Positions 2-53,548 of a stretch of 57,100 nucleotides of DNA are shown here, piece after piece. The stretch lies in contig PMIP01000059.1 in the NCBI GenBank assembly GCA_003158295.1, positions 31,617-88,716 of the forward strand, given 5' to 3'. Under the pieces are notes generated by a model. That model ran no database searches. It was not told the DNA's origin and was given only the letters and a program-made list of their open reading frames with translations. Each line of letters starts with the position of its first letter. The first letter of the stretch is position 1. Source of the stretch: Chloroflexota bacterium (lineage in GTDB: Bacteria > Chloroflexota > Limnocylindria > Limnocylindrales > CSP1-4). The translations under genes were made by a program, and so were the position numbers.

Positions 2-2581
2 TCGCCCGACTACACCGAATACGCGGTCATCGAGGTCAACCCGCGCGTCAGCCGCAGTTCGGCGCTGGCGTCCAAGGCGACGGGCTATCCGATCGCCCGC
101 GTGGCGGCGCAGATCGCAGCCGGGCGACGGCTGGCGGAGATCCCCAACGTCGTGACCGGGACCACGGTCGCGGCCTTCGAGCCTGCGCTGGACTACGTGG
201 TGGTCAAGCTGCCGCGCTTCCCGTTCGACAAGTTCCCCAAGGCCGACCGAACTCTCGGCAGCCAGATGAAAGCGACCGGCGAGGTGATGGCGATCGACCG
301 GACCTTCGGCTCGGCGCTGAACAAGGCGCTGCGGGCGCTCGAACAGGCGGGCGCGGGATTCCTGGCCGAAAACGCCGGCTGGACGGCGACGCTCGAGTAC
401 CTGATGGAGCCTGCCGCGGCGGAGCCGACCTTCGTCACGATGGATGGCACCGGACTCCTGTGCGAAGCGCGGGCCTACGCCGAACGAGCCGCCTATCCGA
501 TCGTTCTGAAGCGGTTCCTGGCCCCTTCCGACTCGCGGCTGTGGCGGATCCTCGCCCTGCTTCGGCGCGGAATGCCGGCCGAGACGATCCGGGGCGTGAC
601 CGGCATATCGCCGTGGTTCCTGTGGGAGTTCGAGCGGGTGATCGCGCTGGAGCGCGAAGTCCGGAAGATGGGGGCGCGGCTCGCGGATCCACGGGACGGG
701 GAAGCGGGCATTCTCCTGGCGACGGCAAAACGCGACGGCTTTGGGGATCGCGAGCTGGCGCAGATGGCCGGCGTCACGGCCGAGGCGGTACGCCTGGCGC
801 GGATGGAGCTGGGCATCGTCCCTGGCTACGCCATGGTGGACACGTGCGCGGCCGAGTTCGCCGCGGAGACGCCGTACTTCTACGCCACGTACGCCGCATC
901 GGGTTCCGAGCCGGAGCTGCCGCCCGTGGCGCGGCCGGCGGCGCTGGTCATCGGCTCCGGGCCGGTCCGGATAGGGCAGGGGATCGAGTTCGACTACTGC
1001 GCGGTCCAGGCCGCGGCCGAGCTTCGCGTCCAGGGCTGGCAGGCGGTCATGATCAATTCCAACCCGGAGACGGTCTCGACCGACTTCGACGCGTCGTCGC
1101 GCCTGTACTTCGAGCCGCTGGACCCGGAGAGCGTTCGTTCGGTCGTGGAGGCCGAAACGCCTGAGAGCGCGCCGGGCGAGCCCGCGACGCCGCTCCTCCC
1201 GGCCTTCGTCCAGTTCGGCGGCCAGACGCCTCTCAACCTGGCCGGGCCGCTCGCCGCGGCTGGGATCCCGCTCCTTGGCGCCAATCTCGAGACGATCGAC
1301 CAGGCTGAGGACCGTCTGCGCTTCGCCAACCTGGTCGAGTCGGTCGGCATCCCGCAACCGGAAGGCGGCATGGCCCGCTCGATCGAGGAAGCGCTGGCGC
1401 TGGCCGACCAGATCGGCTACCCGGTCATCGTTCGGCCGTCGTTCGTCATCGGCGGGCTGGCAATCGACTTCAGTTACTCGGCGTCCGACCTGGTGGACCA
1501 GCTGGCGCGCGCGACGGTCGTGGACCCAGACCGGCCGGTCCGGATCGACCGCTACCTCGAAGGGATCGAGGTGGACGTGGACGCCATCGCCGACGGCGAG
1601 ACGGTCCTGATCCCGGGACTGCTCGAGCACGTGGAGCGGGCGGGGGTCCATTCGGGCGACTCGGTGGGGATGTTCCCGCCGCAGACGGTCTCGGTCTCCG
1701 ACCAGGGGCTGATCGTCGACGCCATGGATCGGATCGTTCGGGCGCTTGACGTGCATGGGCTGGTCAACGCGCAGTTCATCGTCCGCGACGACGGCGTGTA
1801 CCTGATCGAGGTCAACCCGCGGGCCAGCCGGACGGTGCCGTTCATGAGCAAGGTGACCGGCGTCCCGATGGTCAAGCTCGCGGTCCGGATCGCCCTGGGC
1901 GAGACGCTCCGCGATATGGGCTGGGGGAACGGGCTCCTGGAGCCGCCGCCACTCGTCGCGGTCAAGGCGCCGGCCTTCTCCACGGCCAAGCTGCGTGGCG
2001 TGGACCCGTCGGTGGGCCCGGGGATGCAGTCCACCGGCGAGGTGATCGGTATCCACACGGACCCGCGCGTGGCGCTGGCCAAGGCAATGCAGGGCGCGGC
2101 CCTCATCCCGCCGCGGCCGGGAGCGGACGGTGCGCTGGCGTTGATCTCCGTCGCGGAACGGGATCACGGGGAGCTGCCGCGCGTGGCCCGGGCCCTGGCT
2201 CGGGCCGGCTACAGGTTCGCGGCCACTTCCGGGACGGCCGCGGAGCTGCGCGGGTTGGGCTACGAGGCGCAGGTCGTGGCCAAGGTGGGGGAGACGCCGG
2301 AGCCGGGTGGGGCGTCGATCCTGGATCTCATCGCCTCGGGCAAGGTCCGGCTCGTGGTCAACACGCCGTCGCCCAAGTCGGGGCCGGTTCGAGACGCCAT
2401 CGAGATCCGCCTGGCCGCCACCGCGGAAGGGATCCTGTGCCTGACCGCGATCGAGACCGCGGTTGCCGCCGCCGAGGCGCTGGACCCTGATCTGCTCGAA
2501 CGGCTGGCGGAGGTGCGCTCGCTCGGCGAATGGGTCCCCGATCCGGGCCGGCCGCGGGGCGTTGCCGGGGGCGTGGCCTGA
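2..2581 (+). CDS. carB: Carbamoyl-phosphate synthase large subunit, 5'-truncated at window edge
   Basis: Frame is open from base 2 (SPDYTEYAVIEVNPRVSRSSALASKATGYPIA). Oligomerisation region, second ATP-grasp half (VIGSGPVRIGQGIEFDYC, IEVNPRASRTVPF) and MGS-like C-terminus are present. Stop TGA at 2579-2581. Confidence 0.95.
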   Translation, partial: SPDYTEYAVIEVNPRVSRSSALASKATGYPIARVAAQIAAGRRLAEIPNVVTGTTVAAFEPALDYVVVKLPRFPFDKFPKADRTLGSQMKATGEVMAIDRTFGSALNKALRALEQAGAGFLAENAGWTATLEYLMEPAAAEPTFVTMDGTGLLCEARAYAERAAYPIVLKRFLAPSDSRLWRILALLRRGMPAETIRGVTGISPWFLWEFERVIALEREVRKMGARLADPRDGEAGILLATAKRDGFGDRELAQMAGVTAEAVRLARMELGIVPGYAMVDTCAAEFAAETPYFYATYAASGSEPELPPVARPAALVIGSGPVRIGQGIEFDYCAVQAAAELRVQGWQAVMINSNPETVSTDFDASSRLYFEPLDPESVRSVVEAETPESAPGEPATPLLPAFVQFGGQTPLNLAGPLAAAGIPLLGANLETIDQAEDRLRFANLVESVGIPQPEGGMARSIEEALALADQIGYPVIVRPSFVIGGLAIDFSYSASDLVDQLARATVVDPDRPVRIDRYLEGIEVDVDAIADGETVLIPGLLEHVERAGVHSGDSVGMFPPQTVSVSDQGLIVDAMDRIVRALDVHGLVNAQFIVRDDGVYLIEVNPRASRTVPFMSKVTGVPMVKLAVRIALGETLRDMGWGNGLLEPPPLVAVKAPAFSTAKLRGVDPSVGPGMQSTGEVIGIHTDPRVALAKAMQGAALIPPRPGADGALALISVAERDHGELPRVARALARAGYRFAATSGTAAELRGLGYEAQVVAKVGETPEPGGASILDLIASGKVRLVVNTPSPKSGPVRDAIEIRLAATAEGILCLTAIETAVAAAEALDPDLLERLAEVRSLGEWVPDPGRPRGVAGGVA

Positions 2582-5506: not shown

Positions 5507-6073
5507 ATGATGGAAGCGACCGTCGACAGGGGAATTGATGATGTGCTCGAGCAGGTAGGGGAGGCGCGCACGGACGAGCTCGACGAGACCTTCGCCACGC
5601 TCTACCGGGAGCGCTACCGCGATGTGTATCGCTACGCATTGCTGATGCTGAGGCGGGTCGAGGACGCAGAAGACGTCTCCGCCGAAGCGTTCCATCGAGC
5701 CTTCGCGGCCTGGCAAGCCGGCCATGGACCGGAGGGACGGGCCCTGCCGTGGCTGCTGCTCATCACCAGGCGGCTGGTCATCGACCGAACCCGGCGCCGG
5801 CGACTCCTGTCGTGGCTTCCGCTCGCGTCGTTGAGCCCCGCCCACGAGCCTTCCAGAGAGGCCGAGACCGGCCGGACGGAGTTCTGGCTCTGGTTCGAGC
5901 GGTTCGCTCGTGAGCTCTCGCAACGTCAGCGTGAAGTCTTGATCCTGCGCTACCAGCGTGACCTGGACGACGACCAGATCGGCGAGATCTTGGGGATCTC
6001 CGCCTCGGCCGTTCGATCGCTCGTCGCGCGAGCCTGCGCAGCCCTGCGCCGCAACCCGGAGATCTGGCAATGA
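5507..6073 (+). CDS. ECF-type RNA polymerase sigma-70 family factor
   Basis: Region 2 (YRYALLMLRRVEDAEDVSAEAFHRAFAAW, LLLITRRLVIDRTRRRR) and region 4 HTH (LSQRQREVLILRYQRDLDDDQIGEILGISASAVRSLVARA). First in-frame ATG pair is at 5507/5510. The longer track ORF from 4796 overlaps ccdA and is rejected. Confidence 0.85.
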   Translation: MMEATVDRGIDDVLEQVGEARTDELDETFATLYRERYRDVYRYALLMLRRVEDAEDVSAEAFHRAFAAWQAGHGPEGRALPWLLLITRRLVIDRTRRRRLLSWLPLASLSPAHEPSREAETGRTEFWLWFERFARELSQRQREVLILRYQRDLDDDQIGEILGISASAVRSLVARACAALRRNPEIWQ

Positions 6074-7275
6074 GTGAGAATCAGCATTCCGATGACGAGA
6101 TCCTGAATGGCGTGCGCCGCCGATTGGCCGGTGCCGAGCCGCTCATCCCGCAGCCGCCGGCGTTGGGGCCGGCCTTCACCGAGGCTGCCCAGGCGCGCCC
6201 GAGGGTGGTTGTGCGCAGCCGGCTTGGATTGGGCGGCTTCGCGCCGCTGGCTCTGATCGCGGCGCTTGTGGTGGTCGTCGTTGGAGTTGGCATAGGAAGC
6301 CAGACTCTCCAGGGAAATGGAACCGGCGCATTCGCCGGGACTCCAGGGCCCTCCGGATCGCCGGCGTCCCCCAACTACCCTGGGTTCGGCCTTTCCTATC
6401 AGCTGGTGCATCCGGCCGGCACCCAGGTGACCCCCGCCGAATTGGATGCGACCAAGGCGGTCCTGATCAAGCGCGCTGAGTCTTTGGGGCCGACGTCCTA
6501 TTCGGTCAATGAGGCGCCACCGGATGGGATCACGGTCTGGTTGGAAGGCGTCCCCGACACGGCGGAGGTGCGCACACTGATCGGCCAGACCGGACACCTC
6601 GAGTTCGTGCCGCTGCCGCCCGAGACATATGGAACCTCTGGCTCTCCAGGTCAGAAGATGCTGCCGACCACAGGCGAAACGATCGACCCGTCGCTGCCGG
6701 CGCAGTTCACAGGGGCGGACTTGGACCCGAGCCTGGTGTACATGCGCGAGGACACCGCGACGGGCGGATTGGCACTCGAGTTCGGGTTCAAGGAGCCGGC
6801 GGCCTCCGCGCTCGAGACCTGGTCCACGCAGCACGTAAACGACTTCTTCGCGATCGTTCTCGACGGGAAGGTCGTGTCCGTGCCCTACATCAAGTCGACG
6901 ATCATCGGCGGCAAGGGCGAGATCGCGGGCGACTTCACGACGCAAAGCCTCGCGGAGCTGGCCACGGTTCTGCAATCCGGCTGGCTGCCTTACCCGCTTC
7001 TCGGGGGCGAGACCGGGCCCATCGGCGGGCCGGTGGAGTCGGGCGTGCCGCTCCCTTCGGGCTTGGCGATCCCTTCGGACGTGCCGATGCACTCGGGCGC
7101 GCCGATGGAGTCGGGCGGGGCGATCCACTCGGCCGCGCCGATGGAGTCGGGCGTTGCGCTCCCTTCGGGCGTGCCGACTGGAACGTGCGGGCCGAGTGAG
7201 ATGTGCGTGCCGACTGGATCGGGTGGACCGAGCGCCATCGAGTCACCGCCGGCCGCCTCCAGCCCCCAGCTCTAG
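6070..7275 (+). CDS. Single-pass membrane protein with a SecD P1-head-like extracytoplasmic domain and a PxxSG-repeat tail; positional anti-sigma factor candidate
   Basis: ATGA overlap with the sigma stop (6070-6073). One TM (FAPLALIAALVVVVVGVGIG). VLIKRAESLGPTSYSVNEAPPDGITVWLEGVPDTAEVRTLIGQTGHLEFVPL and LDGKVVSVPYIKSTIIGGKGEIAGDFTTQSLAELATVLQSGWLPYPL resemble the E. coli SecD periplasmic P1 segments as I recall them ([30 protein letters not shown]...LEFRLV). No 12-TM SecDF core. Confidence 0.7.
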   Translation: MSENQHSDDEILNGVRRRLAGAEPLIPQPPALGPAFTEAAQARPRVVVRSRLGLGGFAPLALIAALVVVVVGVGIGSQTLQGNGTGAFAGTPGPSGSPASPNYPGFGLSYQLVHPAGTQVTPAELDATKAVLIKRAESLGPTSYSVNEAPPDGITVWLEGVPDTAEVRTLIGQTGHLEFVPLPPETYGTSGSPGQKMLPTTGETIDPSLPAQFTGADLDPSLVYMREDTATGGLALEFGFKEPAASALETWSTQHVNDFFAIVLDGKVVSVPYIKSTIIGGKGEIAGDFTTQSLAELATVLQSGWLPYPLLGGETGPIGGPVESGVPLPSGLAIPSDVPMHSGAPMESGGAIHSAAPMESGVALPSGVPTGTCGPSEMCVPTGSGGPSAIESPPAASSPQL

Positions 7276-8651
7276 GCCCTCTCGACGAGGGAGGGGCTTT
7301 CCGAAGCCACCGTGGTAGCCGCCAGCGTCCCCTCCGCGTCCGCGACCGCGGCGGCCACTCGGTCGGTCCCGCGGAACCAGGTCCAGAGCAGGGCCGTGGC
7401 GGTCGTGTACAGCACGATGATGGTGACGAAGTCCACTGCGTAGCCGGCGGTGAATCCGAGCGACGCCTGGAGAGCGCCGTAGTACGGCGACGCGATCGCC
7501 CACCCGAGCGACCACAGCATCGTCATTCCGGCTGCCAGCGTGGCTCGCTCCGCCGGGGAGACGCGCTCCATCGCGAACGCGTCGAAGATCGGGCTGCCCG
7601 CGTTCATCAGCGAGTTGCGCACGGCCAGGGCGATGATCACGGTCCACAGCATCGGGGAGAAGCCGAGGACGACGAGGAACGGGATGCTGGCCCCCTGCAC
7701 CAGCACGATCGATCCGATGCGGCCGAATCGGCTGGCGAGAGCCGGCTGAGCCAGGATCGCGGCCGCGGTGCCGAGGCTGGTCACGGCGAAGATCACGTTC
7801 ACTTCTGTGAGACCCAGGCCGAACTTGTTCTCGATGAAGACGTTCAGGAAGGGGATCAGCTGGCCGGCACCCAGGGACGTCAGGAATCCCGGCAGAAGCA
7901 GCCGGAAGAAGAGGCGCTTATCCAGGATGACGATGCCGAATCGGCTCGCCCCGGCGGCCGGCGCTCGACCGGCCGCCGGCCTGTCGCTGGTGAGCAGCCA
8001 CACGGTCCCCAGGGAAAGGACACCCAGGATCGCCACTCCGGACAGGAGGATCTGATAGGGCGCCGCGGCTGAACCGAGGTTCAGGCGAGAGGCGATTTCG
8101 GGGGCCAGTGCTCCACCCGCGAGGGCGGCCACCAGGCCCGTAAGAAACCCAATGGCGGACCAGATGGCGAAGTACTCGTTGCGCTGGTCCGGCCGGGTGT
8201 GCTCGGCGATGAACGGGATCTGGACCACGCTGACTGCCATGGACCCGGCGCCGAGCGCGGCTACACCCACGAACAGCAGCGGCAACTGGCCTGGCAGAAA
8301 CGCGAGTAGCGCGACCGCCACCAGGACCATGCCCGCGGCCATCACGCTGCGTCTTCCGAACCTGTCGGAGAGCGCGCTGGCCGGGAGGGCCGTCAGGACG
8401 CCTGCCAGCGAGTAGGCAGCCAGCAGCCAGCCGATCGTCCACTTCAATCCGATCGACTCCAGGTAGAGGTTGAAGTCGATGAAGTAGAGGCTGATCGCCG
8501 CCCCAAAGACGACCGTGGTCAGCAGGAAGATCCGGGCGTCACGGCTGAAGCCGGTGAAGCTGCGGATGTACCTCGCGATTGCGCCAGCCACCGTTCCGGC
8601 AGACCTCTCGCTCAGCGGGCCGGATCGAGAACGTTGCGCTCTTCCTCGCAC
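7272..8651 (-). CDS. MFS transporter
   Basis: About 12 TM segments. MFS loop motif LSDRFGRRSVM between TM2 and TM3. An alternative GTG start at 8591 would remove the overlap with the upstream mini-ORF. Confidence 0.85.
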   Translation of the reverse strand: MRGRAQRSRSGPLSERSAGTVAGAIARYIRSFTGFSRDARIFLLTTVVFGAAISLYFIDFNLYLESIGLKWTIGWLLAAYSLAGVLTALPASALSDRFGRRSVMAAGMVLVAVALLAFLPGQLPLLFVGVAALGAGSMAVSVVQIPFIAEHTRPDQRNEYFAIWSAIGFLTGLVAALAGGALAPEIASRLNLGSAAAPYQILLSGVAILGVLSLGTVWLLTSDRPAAGRAPAAGASRFGIVILDKRLFFRLLLPGFLTSLGAGQLIPFLNVFIENKFGLGLTEVNVIFAVTSLGTAAAILAQPALASRFGRIGSIVLVQGASIPFLVVLGFSPMLWTVIIALAVRNSLMNAGSPIFDAFAMERVSPAERATLAAGMTMLWSLGWAIASPYYGALQASLGFTAGYAVDFVTIIVLYTTATALLWTWFRGTDRVAAAVADAEGTLAATTVASESPSLVERA

Positions 8652-20066: not shown

Positions 20067-21245
20067 TCAGGAGTCCTGGCCTCGGTACTCCTTGCGGGAG
20101 ATGCTATCGGCCGCGGCTCTGCGAATCGCATTGCCGAAGTGGCGCTCCCTTGCGTGCCTGGCGGCGATGGAGGGCTGCTCAGCGACTTCGTGCGACAGCC
20201 GCCGATAGCTCCTGAGCCGGCGCTCATCCACTCGACCGGCCGAGACGGCCGCGCGGATGGCGCATCCGGGCTCGAGTCGGTGGGAGCAGTCGGCGAAACG
20301 GCATCGAGCGGCCAGCTCGACCAGGTCCGCGAAGGTTTCGTCGACCCCGACTTCTGTGCCCCACAGGCCCAGCTCGCGCATTCCCGGGGTGTCGAGCATC
20401 AGCGCCCCGCCGGGCAGCCGGAACAGTTCGCGATGACTCGTCGTATGGCGGCCCCGCGAGTCGTCGTCGCGGATCTCGCGCGTGACCATTAGCTGCTCTC
20501 CGGCGAGCCGATTGAGCAGCGTGGACTTGCCGACTCCGGACGAGCCTACCAGGGCGAGTGTCCGTCCGGCCTCGAACCAGCGAGCGATCGTCCGCATTCC
20601 CTGGCCGCTCCGAGTGCTCAGGGCCACGACCGGGACGCGCAACTCGTCGCTGAGACCCGCAGCGCGAGCGTCGCCATCGTCGCTGAGGTCGGCCTTGGTG
20701 AGGAGCACAACCGGCTCCGCGCCCGACTCACGGCCCGTGGAAACGTACCGCTCCAGGCGGCGCGGGTTGAGGTCGCCGTTGAGCGAAGTCGCCACGAAGA
20801 TCACGTCCACGTTGGCCGCCAGGACCTGGACCCCGAGGCGGGGCCCAGCCGCACGCCGGAGGAAGGTCGAGCGGCGCGGAAGGATGGCGTCGATGCGGGT
20901 CTGGCCGTCGTGGAGAGAGGCGACGCAGCCGACCCAATCGCCGACGGCAGGGAGATCGCCGGGCTCCGCTTCGTGGCGGAACCTGCCCGTGAGCGACGCC
21001 GAGGCCTCGCCCCTCCCGGTCGCGATTATCCACTGGCCCCGATGCTGGGCGATTACCCGCGCCGGCGTCAGTCCGGCGGCCGCGACCGGCGAGAACGTGG
21101 CGGCCCAGGCTTCGTCCCAGCCCCATGCAACCAGGTCTGCCGGAGGCGACCCATCCGGTCCAGTGGTTGCCTGGGCCTCGGTTCCTTGATCCTGGGAAGA
21201 TGGAAGCGCCGGAGATCCCTCTCCGGCGCCAACGTTGGATGTCAT
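20067..21245 (-). CDS. rsgA: Ribosome small-subunit-dependent GTPase A
   Basis: Circularly permuted GTPase: VLLTKADL, LVGSSGVGKSTLLNRL, DTPGMRELGLW, and the zinc knuckle CRFADCSHRLEPGCAI. The ATG at 21245 lies 2 nt after the permease stop. Confidence 0.9.
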   Translation of the reverse strand: MTSNVGAGEGSPALPSSQDQGTEAQATTGPDGSPPADLVAWGWDEAWAATFSPVAAAGLTPARVIAQHRGQWIIATGRGEASASLTGRFRHEAEPGDLPAVGDWVGCVASLHDGQTRIDAILPRRSTFLRRAAGPRLGVQVLAANVDVIFVATSLNGDLNPRRLERYVSTGRESGAEPVVLLTKADLSDDGDARAAGLSDELRVPVVALSTRSGQGMRTIARWFEAGRTLALVGSSGVGKSTLLNRLAGEQLMVTREIRDDDSRGRHTTSHRELFRLPGGALMLDTPGMRELGLWGTEVGVDETFADLVELAARCRFADCSHRLEPGCAIRAAVSAGRVDERRLRSYRRLSHEVAEQPSIAARHARERHFGNAIRRAAADSISRKEYRGQDS

Positions 21246-21247
21246 GG

Positions 21248-22048
21248 CTAGCCAACCCTCTTGAGCTTGCCGGTCCGCTTGGCGTAGCGCTCGGCTTGGC
21301 CGAAGCCCCAGAGCCCAACCGGGATGAAGACGAAGGCCATGACCAGCAGTGGCCACAAGTCGGGCAGCAGCTGGCTCGCCGAAGCGCCGTCGATGAGGGC
21401 CTTGCGGACCGCGTCGAGGACGTAGGTTGCCGGCGAGACGCGCGACACGAGCTGCATCCAGCCGGGCAGGATGGTAGTCGGGTAGTAGACGCCGCTGACC
21501 AGCAGCAGGCACGACTGCAGGACAAAGACCATCTGCGAACCGCGCTCAACCGACATCATCGGCAGAATCGCGGCCAGCATGCCGACGCCGATGAAGCTGG
21601 CCGAGCCCACGCCCATGAAGAGCGCCGCCGCCGCAAAGTTGGCCCTCCCCAGGTCGAGCGAGAAGAAGAGGGCCAGAATGGCCAGCAGGATCGCGGTGTG
21701 GATCAGCCCGTAGATGACCGCGTAGAGCGCCGAGCCGAGCAGCTGAACCGAGCGCCTGACAGGCGCCATCATCGTGTACTCCAGCGTGCCCTCCCAGCGC
21801 TCCCAGGTGATCGTGTCGCCGATCGACTGGAAGACGACCGACAGATAGTTCCAGAAGACGGCGCCGATGACGAGCGACATGAGGAGCGTGCGGCTGCCGA
21901 CGGACTGGCCGATGAGCGAAACCGACAAGGCGCCCGCGACGGCGTAGACCAGGAAGGCGACCTCCCAGCCGAAGTAACGCTTGGTCAGGTTGAAGTTGCG
22001 CTCGACGAATGCGTATCCGGCGCGCGCATCGCGAGTTAGTGCGATCAC
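21248..22048 (-). CDS. ABC-2 type exporter permease
   Basis: Six TM segments and an ABC-2 family pattern (FVERNFNLTKRYFGWEV...). GTG start with AGGAG 8 nt upstream (aggagactcaaccGTG). Confidence 0.8.
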   Translation of the reverse strand: MIALTRDARAGYAFVERNFNLTKRYFGWEVAFLVYAVAGALSVSLIGQSVGSRTLLMSLVIGAVFWNYLSVVFQSIGDTITWERWEGTLEYTMMAPVRRSVQLLGSALYAVIYGLIHTAILLAILALFFSLDLGRANFAAAALFMGVGSASFIGVGMLAAILPMMSVERGSQMVFVLQSCLLLVSGVYYPTTILPGWMQLVSRVSPATYVLDAVRKALIDGASASQLLPDLWPLLVMAFVFIPVGLWGFGQAERYAKRTGKLKRVG

Positions 22049-22103
22049 GGTTGAGTCTCCTGTGGGGCGCCGCCCGGCGCCGACGCGGATCCTGGATCCG
22101 GGT

Positions 22104-22298
22104 CTAGCGCCGGGCGGCCAGACGGAGCGGGGCATCGGAAGCGAGCGCCGACCCGATCCGGATCAGCCCGCGTCCGAGGCGCTTGCGAACGGAGGGCCGC
22201 GGCGGCGCTTGTGGCGCTTCACAGTGGAAGCGCAGGCGCCGCTCGAGCTCTCGTTGCTGCTCGTCGTGAATGACCTTGGCGATGTGATACGAGAACAA
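22104..22298 (-). CDS. Mini-protein (64 aa) resembling the 8612-8827 product
   Basis: Putative TTG start after aagggatacc. The tail RKRLGRGLIRIGSALAS parallels RIRGLHLRIGAFLIV of the other mini-ORF. Sits between the ABC ATPase and the permease. Confidence 0.35.
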   Translation of the reverse strand: MFSYHIAKVIHDEQQRELERRLRFHCEAPQAPPRPSVRKRLGRGLIRIGSALASDAPLRLAARR

Positions 22299-22348
22299 CT
22301 TGGTATCCCTTTCTTGGTCTGGTCCGATCCGGGTCCCTGGCGACCCGC

Positions 22349-23227
22349 CTAGTCCGCCGGATCGGCTTCGCCCTCCTCGACGTCGTCGTCGAGGGAGCGG
22401 CCGGTGTACTTCATGAATGCGCTCTCGAGAGTCGGTGGCAGGCCGTACTCGAGGGCAACCAGTCTCTTGAGGCCTTCGGGCGTTTCCTCGACCGCCAGTC
22501 GCCCGCCGGCGAGGATCCCGATCCGCCCGCACAGCCGATCGGCTTCCGCGAGGTCGTGCGTTGTCAGCAAGATCGTCGCGTCGTGATCGGCCTGGAGCTC
22601 TTCGATGAATGACTGGACGTCGAGCTTCGAGCGCGGGTCCAGGCCGGTAGTCGGTTCGTCGAGCAGCAGCAGCGTCGGGCTCGTCAGGATCGCCCTGGCG
22701 ATAGCGACCTTCTGCTGCATGCCGCGGCTCATCTGCTCCACCGGCCTGGCCATCCGCTTCTCGCCGATTCCGAGCCGGGCCATGATCCCGGCTGCCTTGA
22801 GGCGTGCCTCGCGGCCGTCCAGGCCGTAGAGGCGGGCCGCGAACGACAGGTTCTCGGCCGGCGAGAGCTTCTTGAAGAAGGCGGCGTCCACGCTGACCCG
22901 ATTGATGAGGCGCTTGACCGCCATCTCCTCTCGGACCAGGTCGTGGCCGAAGACTTCGACACGACCTTCGTCGAGCGTCAGCAGGCCGCTGACGAGGCGA
23001 ATGAAGGTGGACTTCCCACTGCCGTTCGCCCCGAGGAGACCGTAGATGTCGCCTCGCCCGATGAGGACCGAGACATCGTCCACGGCCACAACCGGCGGCT
23101 TGCGCCGGTCGACGCGAAAACGCTTGGTGGCGTGGTCGACCAGGAGGGCGGCCGGACCGGGGATCGGTCGAATGGCCGGCCGGCTCGGAGCCGGCGATTG
23201 AATTGGTACGGAGACCGCGATGCTCAT
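22349..23227 (-). CDS. ABC transporter ATP-binding protein (DrrA-like, partner of the ABC-2 permease)
   Basis: Walker A GANGSGKST, signature MSRGMQQKVAIA, Walker B LLLLDEPTTGLD. GGGAGG lies 4 nt upstream of the ATG at 23227. Confidence 0.9.
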   Translation of the reverse strand: MSIAVSVPIQSPAPSRPAIRPIPGPAALLVDHATKRFRVDRRKPPVVAVDDVSVLIGRGDIYGLLGANGSGKSTFIRLVSGLLTLDEGRVEVFGHDLVREEMAVKRLINRVSVDAAFFKKLSPAENLSFAARLYGLDGREARLKAAGIMARLGIGEKRMARPVEQMSRGMQQKVAIARAILTSPTLLLLDEPTTGLDPRSKLDVQSFIEELQADHDATILLTTHDLAEADRLCGRIGILAGGRLAVEETPEGLKRLVALEYGLPPTLESAFMKYTGRSLDDDVEEGEADPAD

Positions 23228-23248
23228 GTCACCTCCCTCGTGTGGAAG

Positions 23249-23300
23249 GCTCGCGGCGTGGAGGAACCGCGAGCTGGGTCGGGGTGGGGAGGGCTCGCGG
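23249..23300 (-). promoter_or_regulatory. Three-segment alternative-pairing element with CCUCC loops just upstream of the ABC ATPase SD
   Basis: On the minus strand: CCGCGAGC (23293-23300), GCUCGCGG (23267-23274), CCGCGAGC (23249-23256). The middle segment can pair with either flank. Both intervening loops contain CCUCC, complementary to the GGGAGG SD (23232-23237). Confidence 0.4.
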
Positions 23301-23339
23301 CTTTGCCCCAGGGGCGCGTTGCGCCTGCCGAGGGGCATT

Positions 23340-23371
23340 AAAAAAGCCGGGGGCCCGATCTGGCCCACGGC
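23340..23371 (-). terminator. Intrinsic terminator inside the ABC operon leader
   Basis: Minus strand reads GCCGUGGGCC-AGAUCG-GGCCCCCGGC followed by UUUUUUAA. A 10-position stem with one U-C mismatch, then six U residues. Confidence 0.65.
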
Positions 23372-23531
23372 TCAGAGGTTCGTCCTGGCGGCATTGCCGC
23401 CCGGGCTAGCTCTCGGTGGGCGCAGATCTCCCGCACACGGCGGGACCGCCGTCCGCTCGGACGGCTCCGGCCGGTGCCTTAGCGAGATTGCGCACGACGC
23501 ACCTCATGAACAGCTGCCTACCTGGCAGACC
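23340..23531 (-). ncRNA. Candidate structured RNA of about 190 nt (riboswitch, attenuator or sRNA) between promoter and terminator
   Basis: Bounded by TTGACA-N18-TAAACT and the terminator. Contains several perfect local hairpins (GCCGUCC-GAGC-GGACGGC, UCCCGC-CGUGU-GCGGGA, GGCGGC-AAU-GCCGCC). I could not match it to a known class by eye. Confidence 0.4.
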
Positions 23532-23537
23532 TGCGGG

Positions 23538-23567
23538 AGTTTAGGGGAGTTCGCGGAATCCTGTCAA
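23538..23567 (-). promoter_or_regulatory. Sigma-70-like promoter TTGACA-N18-TAAACT
   Basis: Minus strand: ttgaca (23562-23567), 18-nt spacer, taaact (23538-23543). Lies 26 nt downstream of the lacI-family stop. Confidence 0.55.
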
Positions 23568-23592
23568 TCGCTTCGCCGGCAAAGCCGGGACA

Positions 23593-24732
23593 TCAGGGAG
23601 CGGTCTCCGACAGTTGAGCTGTTCTACCGCCTCCGGTCGCCGGGAGCACGAGCTCGTCGGTCCTCGGCACCGGGAAATGCACCGGCGGGCCTGAGCGGCT
23701 GCTCTCGCGGATGATGAGCTCCGGCCGCAGCAACGTCATCTCGGGGAGCGGTTCATGGGAGCGTCTGGTCTGGCGCGACCTCGTGATCTGCTGGTCTATC
23801 GCCTTGACGGCAAGGACTCCCGCATCGGCCAGCGGTTGATAGACGGTCGTCAAAGGAGGCCAGAAATGCGACGCCTCGGCGATGTTGTCCACGCCGACCA
23901 CGGACAGCTCTTCGGGAACTCTCCGGCCGATCCGGTGGGCAGCATGCAGGACGCCGAGTGCCATCTGGTCGTTGCTGGCGAAGATGGCGTCTATGTCGGG
24001 GCAGGCTTCCAGTAATCGATACAGCCCCTGCTCTCCGCTGGAGACCGTCCAGTCGCCTTCGACGATCAGGCTCTCCTCGACCTGCCGTCCAGTCGCCTCG
24101 ATCGTCTGTCGCCAGCCGCCGAGGCGCTGCTGGGCCTCCCACCAGGTCAGTGGGCCGGTGACGATGCCCAGGTGCCGAACACCGCCGGCGATCAGATGCT
24201 CGGTCGCCAGGCAGCCGATGGCGGTGTTGTCGATGGCGATGGAAGGCAGGTGGGTCTTGCCGAACATCCCTCCCACCAGCATCACCGGGAAGGACAATTC
24301 GGCGCCCTTCGCTTGCGACCAGGCCCGGTTGTTGCTGACCTCCGGAACCGCCCAGATGACCCCGTCGACCTGGCGCGAGTGCAGGCTGTGGAGGACCCTC
24401 GCTACATCGTCAGTCTCAGGCTCGAGAATCAGGTTGAGCGAGATCCCGTAACCCATCTCGGCGGCCTGGCGCTCTATGGCAGTCACCACTCGCGACGGGC
24501 CGAAGTATTCGAGCCCGTACGCCACCACTCCCAGAACGTGGCTTCGGCCCTGCGTCAGGCCGCGGGCGAACATGTTGGGCGTGTAGCCGGTCTCCAGGAT
24601 GATCTCCTGGACGCGAGCGAAGGTCTCGGGCGCCACGTCCGGCCGGTTATTGATGACCCGGGACACGGTCTGAGTCGACACGCCGGCCGCCGCCGCCACG
24701 TCGTGGATGGTCGGCCGTCGCCCTTTGGCCAT
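23593..24732 (-). CDS. LacI-family transcriptional repressor (probable arabinose-locus regulator)
   Basis: N-terminal HTH PTIHDVAAAAGVSTQTVSRVINN and a periplasmic-binding-protein-like core. The ATG at 24732 has GGAGG at 9 nt; the in-frame ATG at 24741 abuts the SD. Confidence 0.9.
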   Translation of the reverse strand: MAKGRRPTIHDVAAAAGVSTQTVSRVINNRPDVAPETFARVQEIILETGYTPNMFARGLTQGRSHVLGVVAYGLEYFGPSRVVTAIERQAAEMGYGISLNLILEPETDDVARVLHSLHSRQVDGVIWAVPEVSNNRAWSQAKGAELSFPVMLVGGMFGKTHLPSIAIDNTAIGCLATEHLIAGGVRHLGIVTGPLTWWEAQQRLGGWRQTIEATGRQVEESLIVEGDWTVSSGEQGLYRLLEACPDIDAIFASNDQMALGVLHAAHRIGRRVPEELSVVGVDNIAEASHFWPPLTTVYQPLADAGVLAVKAIDQQITRSRQTRRSHEPLPEMTLLRPELIIRESSRSGPPVHFPVPRTDELVLPATGGGRTAQLSETAP

Positions 24733-24826
24733 CTGCGGCATCCTCCTCTAGCGGCGAGAGCAGGTCACTGAGGGCAGCAGCGTCAGACTTCGAGTATTGA
24801 CTGCCGTCTGACACGCATGCTAGCCT

Positions 24827-53460: not shown

Positions 53461-53548
53461 GGGCGAGTGGCGGAATGGCAGACGCGCCAGCCTTAGGAGC
53501 TGGTGCCGCGTATGCGGCGTGTCGGTTCGACCCCGACCTCGCCCACCA
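53461..53548 (+). tRNA. tRNA-Leu (anticodon UAG), CCA encoded
   Basis: Acceptor stem GGGCGAG/CTCGCCC. Anticodon stem-loop CCAGC-CTTAGGA-GCTGG. Long variable arm GCCGC-GTAT-GCGGC. T arm GTCGG-TTCGACC-CCGAC. Discriminator A followed by CCA. Confidence 0.9.

Follow-up and report, generated by a model that had tools for sequence, protein, structure and literature searches.

A probable ribosome-mediated transcription attenuator ahead of a DrrAB-like ABC exporter operon in soil and peat Chloroflexota

A leader RNA of about 190 nucleotides (nt), encoded on the minus strand of a 57,100-nt stretch of DNA from a Chloroflexota bacterium (GenBank assembly GCA_003158295.1, contig PMIP01000059.1, positions 31,617 to 88,716; hereafter the window, whose coordinates are used throughout), probably acts as a ribosome-mediated, or leader-peptide, transcription attenuator for the ATP-binding cassette (ABC) exporter operon that follows it. 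We favour this architecture because conservation covers a small open reading frame (ORF), the Shine-Dalgarno sequence before it and the place of its stop codon, because an antiterminator helix overlapping the end of the ORF covaries, and because the element precedes the same ABC operon almost wherever it is found. A preliminary description of the region, made from its sequence alone, had noted a promoter, several hairpins and an intrinsic terminator about 110 nt before the ABC ATPase gene, and had offered a riboswitch, a leader-peptide attenuator or an independent small RNA (sRNA) as explanations; every element described there was found in place on the minus strand (Table 1), with the terminator ending 112 nt before the ATPase ATG at 23227, and it is the leader-peptide explanation that the comparative evidence bears out. 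Leader-peptide attenuation is textbook knowledge in Proteobacteria and Firmicutes, and we know of no documented case in Chloroflexota. The mechanism is thus of a known kind, while the RNA family itself is absent from Rfam 15.

Conservation of the predicted element extends throughout an uncultured class of Chloroflexota from soil and peat. Scanning genomes for the ATPase yielded 80 loci, with ATPase identities of 67-90%, nearly all of them in metagenome-assembled genomes of Limnocylindria/Chloroflexota, three being labelled Zixiibacteriota, Binatia and Anaerolineae. With the leader alone as query, blastn gave a match just 5' of the ATPase gene in 71 of these loci, and a pattern search recovered a conserved box together with the terminator in 78; a covariance model of the aligned region from box to terminator, which finds a single copy in the window (106 bits), also detected a diverged copy in one of the two box-less loci (L023), and so brought the total to 79 of 80. 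The 3' 100 nt of the leader are 70-88% identical even where the ATPase is only about 70% identical, and the sequence upstream of the box is poorly conserved between clades, apart from the features of the ORF. The genes around the leader are the ATPase in 80/80 loci, the permease in 78/80, RsgA in 51/80 and the LacI-family regulator in 7/80, and the leader therefore belongs to the ABC genes and not to the gene upstream; the association with an ABC-2/rsgA operon that had been proposed earlier thus holds almost universally for its ABC part, and for rsgA only in those 51 loci. The converse search, a metagenome scan with the RNA motif alone, led to the same place: among the 99 testable contigs, meaning those with at least 500 nt downstream of the motif, the ATPase lies directly downstream in 95, and the four exceptions look like rearrangements: one has a truncated ATPase, and the other three (the near-identical L117 and L161, and L148) have the leader ahead of RsgA-type sequence, as described below. 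Metagenomes from peat contain the sequence, and so do peat metatranscriptomes (runs X23-X26). No Rfam 15 family reaches its gathering score at the leader locus, and at permissive E-values the best match, the Xoo2 sRNA (RF02241), falls short with 28 bits of its gathering score of 45 and aligns only with the terminator-like part; the preliminary description, too, had matched the RNA to no riboswitch, SRP, 6S, RNase P or tmRNA. In Xoo2, as in the leader, a small hairpin precedes a GC-rich terminator hairpin and a U tract, but Xoo2 is a Xanthomonas sRNA of unrelated organism and genomic context.

The heart of the element is the box, whose 16-nt consensus is CGGGAGAUCUGYGCCC, and its pairing with a downstream segment that serves at once as the upper 5' strand of the terminator stem and as the terminator loop; the antiterminator and terminator helices are, as predicted structures, mutually exclusive. 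In the alignment used for the antiterminator helix (A1, 71 sequences), 90.4% of the cells in columns 14-26/80-91 are paired, as against 28-47% when the partner strand is slid by one to three columns, and none of 500 shuffles reached the covariation score of the helix. Because MAFFT sets a 2-nt deletion in the loop of one clade at the wrong place, the pairs were recounted by their offset from the invariant GCCC/GGGC anchors; across 57 distinct haplotypes the register-corrected pairs are CG in 44 and GC in nine at one position, UA in 40, GC in eight and AU in one at another, UA in 36, CG in seven and UG in 11 at a third, and, in the other half-helix, AU in 32 and UA in six, these compensatory changes stemming from a limited number of clades, with some counts representing few events inherited by many sequences. 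Double compensatory changes extend into the terminator loop, and since a plain terminator loop has no cause to covary with sequence 70 nt upstream, this is the strongest single result of the analysis. The terminator helix, for its part, has 92.4% of cells paired across 70 sequences. Its U tract is the only T/A run of at least five on either strand of the window, which has a GC content of 67.7%, and the rest of the window thus seems to do without canonical U-tract terminators, a rarity that the preliminary description had remarked upon with good reason.

The second line of evidence is the leader ORF. A 33-codon frame at 23406-23507, opening with an ATG at 23507, had been noticed earlier, and the frame does exist, but not with that start: the ATG is replaced by ACG or AAG in close relatives, in which a GAGGUG...GUG arrangement is kept instead, and the start is the GUG at 23495, giving 29 codons. 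A Shine-Dalgarno-like sequence precedes the start codon by 3-13 nt in 70 of the 79 loci, and the remaining nine have the same frame, with the Shine-Dalgarno sequence at least 14 nt away or cut off by a contig end. The ORF is present in every complete copy, with lengths of 26-33 codons across loci, and its stop codon follows the box at a nearly fixed distance: +9 nt in 58 loci, +6 in three and +4 in nine. The frame is open in all 69 unique leader ORFs, and the other two frames carry stops in 42/69 and 23/69 of them. At third codon positions the GC fraction (GC3) is 0.80, exceeding GC1 and GC2 as it does in the neighbouring genes. The peptides themselves are highly variable, sharing only the G-R-S/G-A/V-P encoded by the box and, some 15 residues from the C-terminus, a loose A-P; their composition (Ala, Arg, Ser, Gly, Pro) is that expected of GC-rich DNA, and the 69 unique peptides show no run of a single amino acid and no positional enrichment. 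In nine loci (L019, L021, L031, L035, L038, L039, L059, L063 and L065, the clade with the stop at +4 instead of +9) the box is read one frame over, yielding ..DAGDPCPS* in place of the usual ..GRSVPxxx*, and its nucleotides are kept; the constraint therefore falls on the RNA, and apparently on its being translated, and not on the peptide sequence. L078 and L050 have the same N-terminal pattern as this clade and keep the usual frame, and a 1-nt insertion or deletion just before the box is thus the likely explanation of the shift. From these features taken together, we infer that the leader ORF is translated.

A mechanism can be proposed in which the ribosome chooses between the two helices. Transcription would start at the conserved promoter, and the 29-codon ORF would be translated while RNA polymerase proceeds. 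The box lies under roughly the final nine codons of the ORF, and its pairing with GUGGGC-CAGAUC would form the antiterminator and exclude the terminator hairpin. A ribosome reaching the end of the ORF would cover or unwind the box, allowing the terminator to form and transcription to stop at the U tract, with the operon off; a ribosome delayed, stalled or absent upstream would leave the box free to form the antiterminator, and read-through would then reach the genes for the ATPase, the permease and, in many genomes, RsgA. The moment that would count is the one at which the 5' strand and loop of the terminator have emerged and its 3' strand has yet to be transcribed.

These steps were explored in silico, with the ribosome modelled as a 29-nt footprint. 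When only the nascent RNA as far as the terminator loop was folded, the antiterminator dominated in 49 of 65 naked leaders, with a median probability of 0.97; it persisted with the P site in the first two thirds of the ORF, fell away with the P site 9-10 codons from the stop and was gone within the last seven codons, including with the ribosome at the stop itself. A footprint over the last nine or so codons removed the antiterminator in all 65 leaders, a loss that follows by construction from the overlap between ORF and box, and it is this overlap that is the conserved feature. Traces of expression are compatible with the scheme. Assembled RNA contigs cover the leader, one of them spanning 23041-23381 and thus running across the terminator into the ATPase gene; another, at 23410-23790, indicates that some RNA also enters from the LacI gene, and the contig breaks at 23352-23434 look like strain variation. 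In run X23 the k-mer depth reaches 22-34 across 23340-23473 but only 14 downstream of it and about 9 upstream, a pattern that offers weak evidence for a leader made in excess and partly terminated.

Several observations weigh against an attenuator of this kind. The RNA evidence consists of assembled metatranscriptome contigs only, in which depth is a poor measure and carry-over of DNA possible. When the full leader is folded to equilibrium, the terminator prevails in most sequences, at whatever position the footprint is set; with a GC stem of 9-10 bp such dominance is to be expected, and folding of this sort, being uninformative on a kinetic switch, was set aside as a test in favour of the truncated nascent RNA, but it follows that the switch rests on an assumed kinetic, co-transcriptional order of events. 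Transcription-translation coupling, equally assumed here, has to our knowledge not been shown in Chloroflexota. The peptides contain no conserved stall motif independent of the RNA box, and the signal is therefore not readable from them. The U tract is degenerate in one clade (CUCUUUC, CUCAAGU). Moreover, when folding stops at the box, an anti-antiterminator (a 1:2 helix between the box and, mostly, the Shine-Dalgarno/start region) is predicted in 62 of 65 leaders, and RNAalifold did not recover this helix among 26 close relatives, several of which lack the complementarity and none of which offers covariation for it. The antiterminator outcompetes it in the truncated fold, and the anti-antiterminator, predicted but devoid of comparative support, stays outside the proposed mechanism; untranslated RNA may either terminate or read through.

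Other explanations account for part of the same evidence. A promoter, a structured RNA, a terminator and exclusive helices are also what the expression platform of a riboswitch looks like, and the leader folds more stably than its shuffles (z = -2.8), so that a metabolite- or ion-binding aptamer could be imagined to govern the choice between terminator and antiterminator, with the short ORF incidental. No Rfam family, however, comes at or near threshold outside the terminator-like part, the half of the leader that would hold the aptamer is poorly conserved between clades apart from its ORF features, and an aptamer has no need of a conserved Shine-Dalgarno sequence, start codon, open frame and fixed stop; the riboswitch of the preliminary description thus becomes very unlikely. 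Somewhat less so, though still unlikely, is an antiterminator protein or other trans-acting factor, in the manner of BglG/LicT at its RAT site, PyrR or TRAP, binding the box and the middle hairpin between stop codon and terminator. Box and terminator loop are indeed conserved far beyond the needs of base pairing alone, the middle hairpin is always present, and a factor of this kind could add to control by the ribosome; yet no candidate RNA-binding regulator is found consistently nearby, the LacI-type gene, present at so few loci, encoding a DNA binder, and a conserved ORF with its stop locked to the box would be left without explanation.

The possession of its own promoter and of a strong terminator, together with the k-mer depth above that of its flanks in one metatranscriptome, might instead mark the leader as a gene in its own right, encoding a trans-acting sRNA of about 190 nt or else a functional peptide of 29 residues, that merely neighbours the ABC operon, and attenuated leaders can also act in trans. 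We consider this decidedly unlikely: the element always lies in sense orientation directly 5' of the same operon (79/80 genomes and 95/99 contigs found by the motif), a consensus scan detected no separate promoter for the ABC genes in the 112-nt gap, an antiterminator overlapping the terminator would serve no purpose in an sRNA, and the C-terminus of the supposed peptide is wholly different in the shifted-frame clade and the rest of it variable. A free sRNA function is, in any event, not needed. The same architecture, with leader ORF, alternative helices and terminator, belongs to an attenuator responding to an amino acid, of the trp, his or leu type, in which starvation for that amino acid stalls the ribosome at a cluster of its codons; but no single residue forms runs in the peptides or is enriched at a fixed place, an exporter and a GTPase stand downstream in place of a biosynthetic pathway, and this reading deserves hardly any credence.

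If the leader is a ribosome-mediated attenuator, the question is what it senses. Impaired or slowed translation, caused for instance by ribosome-targeting antibiotics or by general translation stress, is our tentative suggestion, put forward because regulatory codons form no run in the peptide and because the product of the operon is a DrrAB-like exporter. A bolder and rather doubtful version would have the leader be a class-wide sensor of ribosome performance, not of any one drug, with slowed translation raising both exporter and RsgA, a GTPase that acts in assembly of the 30S subunit; it is hinted at by rsgA following the ABC genes in 51 of the 80 loci, by the ribosome-associated ATPase/putative transporter RbbA being the second-best NCBIfam model for the ATPase, albeit far below cut-off, and by the layout of L148 (metagenome contig Ga0066652_100370296, motif at 789-893, minus strand). 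There the leader and terminator are followed by a 95-codon ORF and then by what looks by eye like an RsgA N-terminal region, with no ABC genes between the leader and the RsgA-like protein, which hints that rsgA may be a genuine target of the leader. Through such a sensor, translation capacity would feed back on ribosome maturation. In the same speculative vein, the G-R-S-A/V-P encoded by the box, or the Pro-rich alternative frame, might make the ribosome dwell on the box.

Among known systems the nearest parallel is bmrB-bmrCD of Bacillus subtilis, where, as reporter assays showed, ribosome-targeting antibiotics induce an ABC exporter by way of a translated leader equipped with terminator and antiterminator (PMC4191407). 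Both have a short ORF directly before ABC exporter genes, overlapped by terminator and antiterminator and possibly by an anti-antiterminator (PMC4191407), and in both the ribosome would be the sensor, as is proposed here, with no amino-acid-specific regulatory codons. The differences are equally plain: BmrB has 53 residues, with the terminator inside its coding region (PMC4191407), whereas the present ORFs have 26-33 codons and stop 4-9 nt beyond the antiterminator strand, about 40 nt ahead of the terminator, and the exporter is of the DrrAB-type ABC-2 kind and not a BmrCD-type pair of half-transporters. Antibiotic induction, shown for bmrB, is only guessed here, the likeness being one of architecture and not of compared sequences. 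With the trp, his, leu, thr and pheA attenuators the leader shares a promoter-proximal ORF, exclusive helices, a terminator and the selection of the fold by ribosome position; it differs from trp-type attenuators in lacking tandem regulatory codons and any match to Rfam leader models (Trp_leader, His_leader), in preceding an operon that is not biosynthetic, and in that the segment lying under the terminating ribosome is the antiterminator strand itself. It also recalls the leaders of ermC, cat-86, msrD/msrDL, vmlR and lmo0919, in which a short upstream ORF or its translation governs a gene that counters translation inhibitors (PMC4191407; PMC10314930). Many leaders of the ermC/cat-86 type, unlike this one, expose a Shine-Dalgarno sequence and need specific peptide-drug pairs; in the present case the output is intrinsic termination, and the leader peptides revealed no arrest motif specific to a drug.

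An attenuator spread through a whole class would constitute indirect evidence for transcription-translation coupling in an uncultured lineage, and leaves the understanding of the attenuation mechanism itself unchanged. Of more immediate use, the defined RNA family (box, antiterminator and terminator) can serve annotation pipelines as a model, and it provides a lead on how a DrrAB-like exporter, often accompanied by RsgA, responds in peat and soil bacteria, possibly to antibiotics that target translation.

Table 1. Features of the leader and of its surroundings, in window coordinates and, for the leader and its untranslated region, in order of transcription.
Feature	Position	Strand	Remarks
Sigma-70-type promoter	23538..23567	-	-35 TTGACA 23562-23567, 18-nt spacer, -10 TAAACT 23538-23543; consensus scan
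5'-terminal stem-loop, GGUCUGCC-AGGUA-GGCAGCU	23512..23531	-	At predicted transcript 5' end
Shine-Dalgarno GAGGU of leader ORF	23501..23505	-	5 nt before GUG start
Leader ORF, 29 codons + UAG	23406..23495	-	GUG start at 23495; stop UAG 23406-23408; predicted peptide M(GUG)RNLAKAPAGAVRADGGPAVCGRSAPTES
Hairpin domain inside ORF	23434..23476	-	Core GCCGUCC-GAGC-GGACGGC 23448-23465
Hairpin UCCCGC-CGUGU-GCGGGA	23429-23445	-	From sequence
Conserved box CGGGAGAUCUGCGCCC(AC)	23416..23433	-	Read as leader codons G-R-S-A-P-T
Antiterminator 5' strand GAUCUG-C-GCCCAC	23416-23428	-	Within box
Middle hairpin GGCGGC-AAU-GCCGCC	23387..23401	-	Between stop codon and terminator, in loop closed by antiterminator helix
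Antiterminator 3' strand GUGGGC-CAGAUC	23357..23368	-	Upper 5' strand of terminator stem + terminator loop
Intrinsic terminator	23340..23371	-	Stem GCCGUGGGCC-AGAUCG-GGCCCCCGGC 23346-23371; U6 23340-23345
Rest of ABC ATPase 5' untranslated region	23228..23339	-	112 nt, structured (fold z = -3.5), partly conserved
Hairpin UGCCCC...GGGGCA	23304-23337	-	Directly after U tract
Second hairpin AGCCGCGAGC...GCUCGCGGUU	23265-23302	-	5' untranslated region of ATPase
Third copy GCCGCGAGCC, then CCUUCC	23244-23257	-	5' untranslated region of ATPase
Shine-Dalgarno GGGAGGUG of ATPase	23230-23237	-	Strong
DrrA-like ABC ATPase	22349-23227	-	Pfam, NCBIfam
ABC-2 (DrrB-like) permease	21248-22135	-	Pfam, NCBIfam
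RsgA	about 20067-21149	-	Passes NCBIfam RsgA equivalog model
LacI-family regulator	23593-24741	-	Upstream, same strand

Taken by itself, the promoter match in the window is at chance level, with one site in 12 kb as against 1.3 expected from shuffles; among the 79 related loci, a TTGACN-N16-19-TAnnnT site stands 103-151 nt 5' of the box in 72, the other seven being cut by a contig end or oddly spaced. Transcription is predicted to start near 23531 on the minus strand. The stem-loop that would form the very 5' end of the transcript has compensatory UA<->CG changes (RNAalifold columns 4-8/15-19) in 7 of 26 close relatives, a hairpin of at least 5 bp lies within 6 nt of the predicted 5' end in 64 of 65 leaders, and this structure may stabilise the mRNA.

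Of the hairpins between start codon and terminator, the one inside the ORF occupies RNAalifold columns 71-83/90-104 and shows CG<->UA changes in three sequences, UA<->CG in six and GC<->CG in four; it is a candidate pause hairpin for RNA polymerase, or else a spacer. The middle hairpin has 94.9% of its cells paired, and changes on both sides at five of its six pairs. The leader Shine-Dalgarno sequence GAGGU is complementary to an ACCUC at 23375-23379 (minus strand), just 5' of the terminator. RNAalifold pairs the two in all 26 close relatives, with only G-U wobbles or rare mismatches and no compensatory change; the two could seal the terminated RNA and prevent re-initiation.

The 112 nt between the U tract and the ATPase start may form a second layer of control, acting as a weak second terminator or by masking the Shine-Dalgarno sequence. 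A hairpin GAGCCGCGG...CCGCGGCUC of at least 8 bp, located 20-60 nt 3' of the terminator, occurs in 57 of the 79 loci; its 5' strand resembles that of the first terminator. The segment made of GCCGCGAGCC and CCUUCC could pair with the GGGAGG of the ATPase Shine-Dalgarno sequence. An ATG at 23336-23338 was considered as an alternative start of the ATPase and discarded: it is in frame here, but in only seven of the 41 relatives that have it, and many have none.

The ATPase and the permease are nearest to the DrrA and DrrB subfamilies in NCBIfam, below the curated cut-offs, and the closest solved relatives of the ATPase in a PDB sequence search are nucleotide-binding domains of the ABCA type. A 213-nt gap (22136-22348, minus strand) separates the ATPase stop from the first ATG of the permease ORF, and the longest ORF for RsgA (20067-21512) overlaps the 3' end of the permease gene, the starts assigned to permease and RsgA being provisional. 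In the listed gene order, a gene for a PEBP-family protein comes after RsgA. In two near-identical contigs (L117 and L161, about 31-250), the leader terminator runs straight into an RsgA-type P-loop (..GSSGVGKSTLLNRLAG..), which is explained either by loss of the ABC genes together with rsgA's 5' half or by a chimeric assembly. In a clade in which rsgA does not follow the permease, tandem paralogues come after the permease instead (L024, 6004-8009; L049, about 5900-7921), and these look, from their sequences, like two-domain GNAT acetyltransferases, possibly MshD-like. Elsewhere in the window, a tRNA gene at 53461-53545 (plus strand) is the only match to reach an Rfam gathering score.

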